Part shown: positions 49,475 to 49,585 of the stretch, in pieces
How the letters are laid out: every line of letters begins with the position of its first letter
Numbering within the stretch: position 1 is the first letter of the stretch
NCBI GenBank assembly: GCA_026770705.1
Contig: JANJGN010000075.1
Span: 2,046,001-2,110,000 of the forward strand
DNA length: 64,000 bases
Origin: Isurus oxyrinchus
Taxonomy: Eukaryota
Direction of reading: 5' to 3'
Translations under genes and position numbers: made by a program
The notes under the pieces: model-generated
What the model saw: the letters and a program-made list of their open reading frames with translations, nothing else
The model's database searches: none
What the model was told of the DNA's origin: nothing

Positions 49475-49585
49475 CTTACAATTCTACACCAATTCGTTTG
49501 GGTCTCGCGCCACTGATCATGTTTGGGATTGTGATTATCCTGGGAATAGAGTTAAATCCGATCAAGAGAAACAACGGCTGTAAAG
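49475..49585 (+). CDS. Gene B transmembrane exon with charged Arg ((A)YNSTPIRLGLAPLIMFGIVIILGIELNPIKRNNGCK)
   Basis: tcttctag acceptor, 111 nt, phase 1-1, GTATGC donor. Hydrophobic helix preceded by IRLGLA, followed by basic KR. Confidence 0.85.

Follow-up and report, generated by a model that had tools for sequence, protein, structure and literature searches.

In the shark Isurus oxyrinchus, we have identified a transmembrane (TM) exon with an arginine in the first turn of its predicted helix, embedded in an open gene for an immunoglobulin (Ig) receptor. The exon belongs to a conserved cassette of a shark family of paired receptors, and it rather likely serves an activating member of that family by coupling it to a signalling dimer of the zeta/gamma type. 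According to this model, the receptor would be a type I protein in which a split leader precedes three or four C2-like Ig domains, followed by a TM helix and a tail of some 30 residues without signalling motif. The TM arginine would pack against the aspartate pair of a zeta/gamma-type ITAM dimer, either CD3-zeta or, provided that sharks possess it, FcR-gamma. Sister genes, whose ectodomains are almost the same but sit on a neutral TM followed by an ITIM/ITSM-like tail, would act in the opposite sense. We infer that the gene is expressed in Isurus, that its product binds an adaptor of this identity and that the output is activating. Judged from the sequence, the TM arginine is a real and conserved feature that is probably functional. 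The mechanism itself is textbook knowledge and the genes are already present in RefSeq under automatic names.

The transmembrane exon and its gene

The window, i.e., the whole stretch of 64,000 nucleotides that was analysed, consists of vertebrate DNA with many simple repeats and retroelements. The TM arginine peptide to which a preliminary description of this DNA had drawn attention is encoded on its + strand by a 111-nt exon of phase 1/1 at 49475-49585. This exon has a pyrimidine-rich AG acceptor and the donor AAG/gtatgc, and its phase 1 at both ends is the phase of all other coding exons of the gene. The whole + strand of the 64-kb window was scanned for phase-1 exons of 60-200 nt that are bounded by AG..GT, contain no stop and reach a Kyte-Doolittle value of at least 2.0 over 17 residues, and 49475-49585 was the one candidate obtained. 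A chance ORF as its source is ruled out, as it is the sole + strand candidate and Carcharodon models carry the same exon. The TM exon alone gave no match in Pfam or PDB. A second, neutral TM exon was also sought in the window, where only an inverted tail remnant (see below) was found.

The gene consists of a split leader, four Ig exons, the TM exon and a tyrosine-free tail. Its eight exons all have canonical splice sites and encode 471 amino acids without internal stop; they are 83-97% identical to the RefSeq models P0003 and P0004 of Carcharodon carcharias, without being the same sequence, which marks their bearer as a close relative among the lamniforms. The features of the gene are as follows.

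16399..16429, + strand: signal-peptide exon 1, 31 nt from ATG, GT donor; 9/10 residues shared with the first residues of P0004
31616..31648, + strand: signal-peptide mini-exon 2, 33 nt, AG/GT, phase 1/1; 8/10 residues identical to P0004 and to P0011 of Mustelus
34230..34526, + strand: Ig exon D1, Pfam Ig_2 (E 4.9e-7); 89/98 residues identical to P0004
38876..39169, + strand: Ig exon D2, Pfam Ig_3 (E 7.9e-10); 90/97 residues identical to P0003/P0004; top PDB match FCRL5 (E 5.8e-6)
40460..40753, + strand: Ig exon D3, Pfam Ig_2 (E 1.2e-11); 94/97 residues identical to P0003
41388..41684, + strand: membrane-proximal Ig exon D4, LRC-like; 94/98 residues identical to P0003/P0004
49475..49585, + strand: TM exon, with Ser-4, Pro-2, Arg, 17 uncharged residues including Pro+5, Glu+18 and then a basic juxtamembrane stretch (numbering relative to Arg)
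49489-49491 and 49510-49512, + strand: the two prolines of the TM exon (R-2 and R+5)
49495-49497, + strand: arginine codon CGT of the TM exon
49549-49551, + strand: glutamate of the TM exon (R+18)
50792..50850, + strand: cytoplasmic tail exon, AG acceptor, phase 1; 19 codons, then TGA

Leader exon 1 is located 15.2 kb upstream of exon 2 and was assigned through its match to P0004. Domain D3 is included in P0003 and skipped in P0004. The intron between D4 and the TM exon measures 7.8 kb and holds about 5 kb of CA-rich simple repeat (42600-47700). The preliminary description had reckoned with the case that the TM exon is never spliced to D4; the Carcharodon RefSeq annotation models P0003 and P0004, of which 31/36 residues match the TM exon, do join D4 directly to this exon and continue with the same tail exon, and D4-to-TM splicing is supported by these models. 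The tail exon encodes no tyrosine and no ITIM or ITAM, and is identical to P0004 at 15/18 and to Mustelus P0011 at 8/14 residues. In an AlphaFold model of P0004 (mixed alignment), three Ig domains are well modelled and the TM has a pLDDT below 50.

Between D1 and D2, three dead Ig exon copies lie in a 2.1-kb internal duplication (35333-37450 / 37630-39876) and are skipped by P0003 and P0004:

35280..35560 (approximate ends), + strand: degenerate Ig exon remnant with an in-frame stop and an Ig-like C-terminal half; not in the Carcharodon models
36489..36764, + strand: D2-like Ig exon copy, 64% identical to D2; acceptor lost (TG, where D2 has AG); absent from P0003/P0004 and probably left unspliced
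37630..37895 (approximate ends), + strand: another degenerate Ig remnant, with a frameshift; duplicated copy of the one at 35.3 kb

Other contents of the window belong to the receptor family or to repeats. Upstream, at 7150-13430 (+), lies a dead paralog of four Ig exons with stops and frameshifts, the last of which is closest to a Heptranchias-type D4 (45% identity to P0007); a TM exon was sought behind it and none was found. An inverted last-exon remnant of inhibitory type with a tyrosine motif is located at 6412-6483 (-) and is 64-81% identical to the tails of neutral-TM paralogs, with no matching Ig exons on the (-) strand. A 4.8-kb 5' region is present twice with 70-72% identity (15356-20158 and 59287-64000, +), and its second copy holds, at 60291, leader exon 1 of the next family member. 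This start resembles that of the inhibitory model P0160, and the next member is probably an inhibitory neighbour. A 628-codon open frame at 52015-53898 (+) combines reverse transcriptase and GIY-YIG domains, a pair that identifies it as a Penelope-like retroelement; a second, 3' copy at 9116-9874 (-) is 93% identical, and the element was therefore recently active. ARAGORN returned no tRNA over the window.

A paired-receptor family in sharks

Homolog searches, together with an exhaustive search of which the best 150 of 1729 matches were considered, yielded a family sample of 27 named proteins of cartilaginous fish. Six of these have an arginine TM without tyrosine motif, 17 a neutral TM, one is a fused model with both and three are devoid of a TM. 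One or two ITIM/ITSM-like motifs follow the neutral TM in 11 of the 17 proteins, the others having short or divergent model ends. Mustelus and Heptranchias each encode arginine and neutral/ITIM forms on a near-identical D4. Similar ectodomains are thus mounted either on an arginine TM or on a neutral TM with an ITIM-type tail, which makes this a paired-receptor family.

The comparison of TM exons across paralogs, which the preliminary description had called for, is based on seven arginine-TM segments: the window, Carcharodon (2), Mustelus asterias (2), Scyliorhinus torazame and Heptranchias perlo, with P0003/P0004 counted once. Ser-4, Pro-2, Ile-1, Arg and Glu+18 are kept in all seven, and paralogs with a neutral TM exist beside them. 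Heptranchias is a squalomorph and the other taxa with an arginine TM are galeomorphs; the arginine cassette is therefore older than the main split of living sharks. No arginine TM was present among the matches listed for Cetorhinus, Rhincodon, Pristiophorus, S. canicula and Mobula, by searches too insensitive to establish absence, and equally insensitive searches listed no named chimaera protein. A search with TM plus tail in a large protein set retrieved only two Carcharodon models (2/17 candidates) and missed Mustelus P0011, so that its blanks carry little weight.

A tree of D4 was built from 25 rows, leaving out three TM-less proteins, with a midpoint root for drawing only. It groups mostly by shark order and not by TM type, with arginine and neutral forms mixed inside taxa. 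Placing the arginine label on the tree takes four changes, and a branch that separates the arginine forms from the rest is present in 0% of 200 bootstrap trees. We conclude from this mixing that ectodomains have been homogenised or reshuffled within lineages, whereas two old TM cassettes have been kept, a pattern also described for the XFL genes of Xenopus (PMC2413239).

Several proteins deviate from the common organization. P0165 of Scyliorhinus torazame has three domains like those of Fc-gamma-RI/FCRL, followed by the family D4, an arginine TM and a tail, and is a candidate activating Fc-receptor-like protein or else a fused model. P0001 of Carcharodon resembles a decayed arginine-type gene that has been joined in one model to the inhibitory gene downstream of it, and its intron-derived stretches match the window. 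P0010 of Cetorhinus starts like D1-D3 of the receptor gene and lacks both D4 and TM. Among further matches, P0050 combines a related D4 with an arginine at the TM start and a tyrosine-containing tail end, and the TMs of P0139 and P0146 contain a polar F-x-x-N stretch similar to the classical Fc-receptor signature given in PMC2413239.

Probable adaptor coupling and alternative explanations

As reported in PMC1440944, mammalian FcR-gamma selects an arginine near the N-terminal end of the TM and DAP12 a central lysine, and the position of the shark arginine therefore favours FcR-gamma or zeta over DAP12. Zeta is described with the same Arg-Asp-Asp geometry (PMC13107469), and CD3-zeta expression is reported for catshark and nurse shark (PMC10768021). 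An N-terminal arginine, a motif-free tail and inhibitory sisters together make a zeta/gamma-coupled activating receptor the best reading. Against it counts that a poly-Leu TM with the arginine of Fc-alpha-RI reportedly keeps only ~11% of assembly (PMC1440944), and hence that residues flanking the arginine matter. The preliminary description had predicted coupling to FcR-gamma or CD3-zeta. The N-terminal arginine, the short tyrosine-free tail, the ITIM paralogs and the conservation seen in four other genera speak for this prediction, but its FcR-gamma half runs against reports that this adaptor is absent from sharks and cartilaginous fish (PMC4016189, PMC5742104). We regard that absence as doubtful, because the surveys used older data and missed FCRL-like genes that RefSeq names and PDB matches now suggest. 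Surface rescue is a weak read-out for an adaptor, since NxxR receptors are described as often reaching the surface without FcR-gamma (PMC6557307, PMC2413239).

Two prolines in the exon had been taken beforehand as helix breakers that could indicate a variant or decay. This view fails for the first proline: Pro-2 occurs in 7/7 shark arginine-TM segments, just before the predicted helix, and its invariance rules it out as a sign of decay. A short AlphaFold model of the TM (six sequences, mean pLDDT 73; modest evidence, used for the helix start) has a helix at exon residues 6-26 that extends through Glu+18, with the proline at 5; by this model, Pro-2 caps the helix rather than breaking it. Pro+5 is private to the window and may be a single-base polymorphism or a read error. 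The Carcharodon ortholog in turn has a proline at R+3, and none of the five other segments has one inside the helix. Of the shark TMs, these two lamnid segments have the lowest hydrophobicity and the poorest predicted membrane insertion by a biological hydrophobicity scale.

Could the cassette then be activating in other sharks, with a lamnid copy that is decaying or that makes a weak or decoy receptor? The intra-helix prolines would fit, as would three adjacent TM residues that differ between the window and its Carcharodon ortholog, the larger divergence of the TM exon from Carcharodon (5/36 residues vs 23/390 in the Ig exons; Fisher p 0.076), the three dead Ig exons within the gene with a dead paralog upstream of it, and the resemblance of P0001 to a decayed gene fused to its neighbour. 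Yet 8/8 exons are open with canonical splice sites, the arginine, although encoded by a CpG codon, and the glutamate are both retained, the excess divergence of the TM is not significant and the AlphaFold helix, in what is a low-information model, is continuous through Pro+5. We therefore consider lamnid decay quite unlikely; relaxed constraint on the TM in the lamnid lineage is possible.

The likeness to tetrapod TMs bears both on an activating zeta/gamma-coupled receptor and on a further alternative. Tetrapod NxxR TMs are characterized in PMC6557307 by the arginine, the invariant asparagine of NxxR, a DYT consensus at the N-terminal end and an acid at the C-terminal end, and the corresponding stretch of CD89 is QNLIR (PMC6557307, PMC13107469). 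Our references comprise six segments from five matches, picked by the NxxR motif, and asparagine at -3 is accordingly present in 6/6 tetrapod-like rows by selection; it is found in 0/7 shark segments, which have threonine, isoleucine or serine instead. As for the DYT consensus, four of the seven shark segments have a tyrosine at -6 or -5, one at -9 and two none, and neither the aspartate nor the threonine is kept. The C-terminal acid is Glu+18 in 7/7 shark TMs and lies at +17 in 3/6 and at +18 in one of the tetrapod-like rows. Within the best 19-residue membrane window, the arginine takes place 2 in 6/6 shark TMs tested (start R-1) and place 3 in 3/3 NxxR TMs (start R-2). It is the 8th exon codon in the window, Carcharodon, Mustelus and S. 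torazame and the 12th in the Heptranchias model; in the consensus DYT-x-x-N-x-x-R it is the 9th codon, which brings the shark arginine one residue nearer to the exon start. In CD89, moving the arginine by one residue is reported to abolish assembly (PMC13107469).

A profile of the shark TMs was scored against 115 TMs of the match set (5 NxxR and 110 others). With the arginine column, the NxxR TMs rank above the others (p 0.006), whereas without it they rank 11, 21, 50, 59 and 81 of 115 (p 0.17). An unusual trait is nevertheless shared: an arginine that is separated from an acid by 15-20 uncharged residues is present in 3/5 NxxR TMs vs 1/110 other TMs (Fisher p 1.6e-4) and in all seven shark TMs. 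The shark TM thus probably works like an NxxR TM, though it is not classed as one. Because Asn-3 is absent in 7/7 segments and no homology beyond the arginine was detected, convergence with the mammalian exon is possible, and the chances for and against a common descent of the two TMs appear about evenly balanced. The earlier proposal that the same mechanism operates here, which would make it ancient in jawed vertebrates, is for the same reasons not supported by this comparison.

The same comparison would suit a receptor in which the arginine is an interfacial anchor atop a short helix, its likeness to LRC TMs being convergent and its function (adhesion, scavenging or decoy) independent of any adaptor. 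Such a role accords with the arginine at position 2 of the best membrane window, the lack of Asn-3 and the failure of the profile without arginine column to single out NxxR TMs; the functional arginine of CD89, however, is also located as far out as TM position 3 (PMC1440944). Moreover, arginine and glutamate are invariant in 7/7 segments while neighbouring core positions vary, and the pairing of arginine TMs with motif-free tails and of neutral TMs with tyrosine motifs is strict. This makes an adaptor-independent anchor improbable.

A teleost type I receptor with a TM arginine uses DAP12. Even so, activation through DAP12, DAP10 or a shark-specific adaptor in place of zeta/gamma is very improbable: the reported lack of FcR-gamma in sharks (PMC4016189, PMC5742104) and the acceptance of arginine by DAP10 and rodent DAP12 in type II receptors (PMC1440944) would allow for it, but in type I receptors DAP12 is described as needing a central lysine and as not binding Fc-alpha-RI, with its arginine at TM position 3 (PMC1440944), and zeta both shares the RDD geometry (PMC13107469) and occurs in sharks (PMC10768021).

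Comparison with known receptor families

Mammals, birds and frogs are all known to employ the design of an arginine TM with FcR-gamma (PMC6557307, PMC2413239, PMC4536121). In the literature searched, mostly without subscription journals, we found no description of the shark C2-type family, of its TM signature or of a shark FcR-gamma. A 2021 paper in Immunogenetics reportedly describes FCRL clusters and an LRC-like gene in the elephant shark. That a paired C2-type family carries a conserved arginine-TM cassette in each of the two major shark lineages sampled is an argument for a greater age of the receptor side than the papers on mammals, birds and frogs state. The shark cassette also bears on the question which partner, zeta or gamma, was the original one, and on the need for the asparagine of NxxR.

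With respect to kinship, the family has a mosaic LRC/FCRL look at the level of its sequences. The PDB matches of D4 are PIR-B, LILRB2, LILRA2, CHIR-AB1 and LAIR1, with no FcR/FCRL among 21, and D4 shares 34-38% identity with the best-matching domains of proteins that bear NxxR. In Foldseek, the top 12 ranks are LRC ectodomains or the LILRB1-insert Fab, at 18-22% identity and low TM-scores. D2 and D3 favour FCRL5 and Fc receptors, albeit with weak single-domain E-values (1e-5 to 1e-6), and these are also the immune-receptor matches of D3 in PDB; D1 has no PDB match. Family profiles retrieve FCRL5 first and then PIR-B/LILR from PDB, and many shark relatives bear the automatic RefSeq name 'Fc receptor-like protein 5'. 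The mosaic is more pronounced still in P0165, if that is not a fused model. In the ESM Atlas, VSTM1, HIDE1 and LILR clusters score 0.75-0.77, below the 0.9 lead level, and are not counted as evidence. The leader exons of 31/33 nt depart from the FCRL/XFL rule of 30(31)/21 nt; this mismatch is not exclusive, because the 30/21-nt rule is reported to hold in only a fraction of XFL genes (PMC2413239). As to synteny, TTYH1/LENG8/LENG9 and RPS9/TSEN34/CNOT3 are given for the LRC (PMC6557307) and SLAMF8, IGSF9, DUSP23 and TAGLN2 for FCRL/XFL (PMC2413239). The gene content of the 64-kb window is limited to the receptor family and repeats, with none of the latter four genes.

A more far-reaching scenario, which we regard as unlikely, would trace the S-x-P-I-R..E exon of sharks and the NxxR exon of tetrapods to one TM cassette of the jawed-vertebrate ancestor, which in sharks would have moved along with an LRC-like D4 and been shuffled onto FcR-like ectodomains, as in P0165. 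If so, the shark family would be an LRC/FcR mosaic close to the root shared by both groups. It would signal through zeta, should FcR-gamma prove to be really absent, and P0165 could be an activating Fc receptor that recognizes IgM, IgW or IgNAR.

Among known systems, the MDIRs of the clearnose skate are, like the present family, an activating/inhibitory Ig-receptor multigene family of cartilaginous fish (PMC3031540). MDIRs are V-type and resemble CD300/TREM/pIgR, whereas the domains in the window are C2-like (Ig_2/Ig_3), and no CD300/TREM chain is found among the PDB matches of D2, D3 and D4. Mammalian FCRL5/Fc-gamma-RI are approached through FCRL5 as the top PDB match of D2 and of the family profiles. 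They differ in that the shark D4 has no FcR match, the classical TM signature (M/L)Fxx(D/N)TxL is missing and leader exon 2 measures 33 instead of 21 nt. The XFL genes of Xenopus are described, as is the case in sharks, as a large tandem family in which arginine-TM/short-tail and neutral-TM/tyrosine-motif exons are interchangeable and genomically intermingled, and their association with FcR-gamma is reported from co-transfection (PMC2413239). XFL TM1, in contrast, has NxxR and carries the tail on the TM exon, and many XFL leaders are 30/21 nt, compared to 31/33 nt in the shark gene. With the NxxR-TM receptors (LILRA, NKp46, GPVI, Fc-alpha-RI, OSCAR and TARM1; chicken ggFcR; Xenopus ILR1-4; PMC6557307, PMC4536121), the shark gene has in common C2-like Ig domains, an N-terminal TM arginine, a C-terminal TM acid, a short tail and inhibitory paralogs; it is set apart from them by an invariant Pro-2 and Ser-4 in place of Asn-3 and by a tail on a separate exon.
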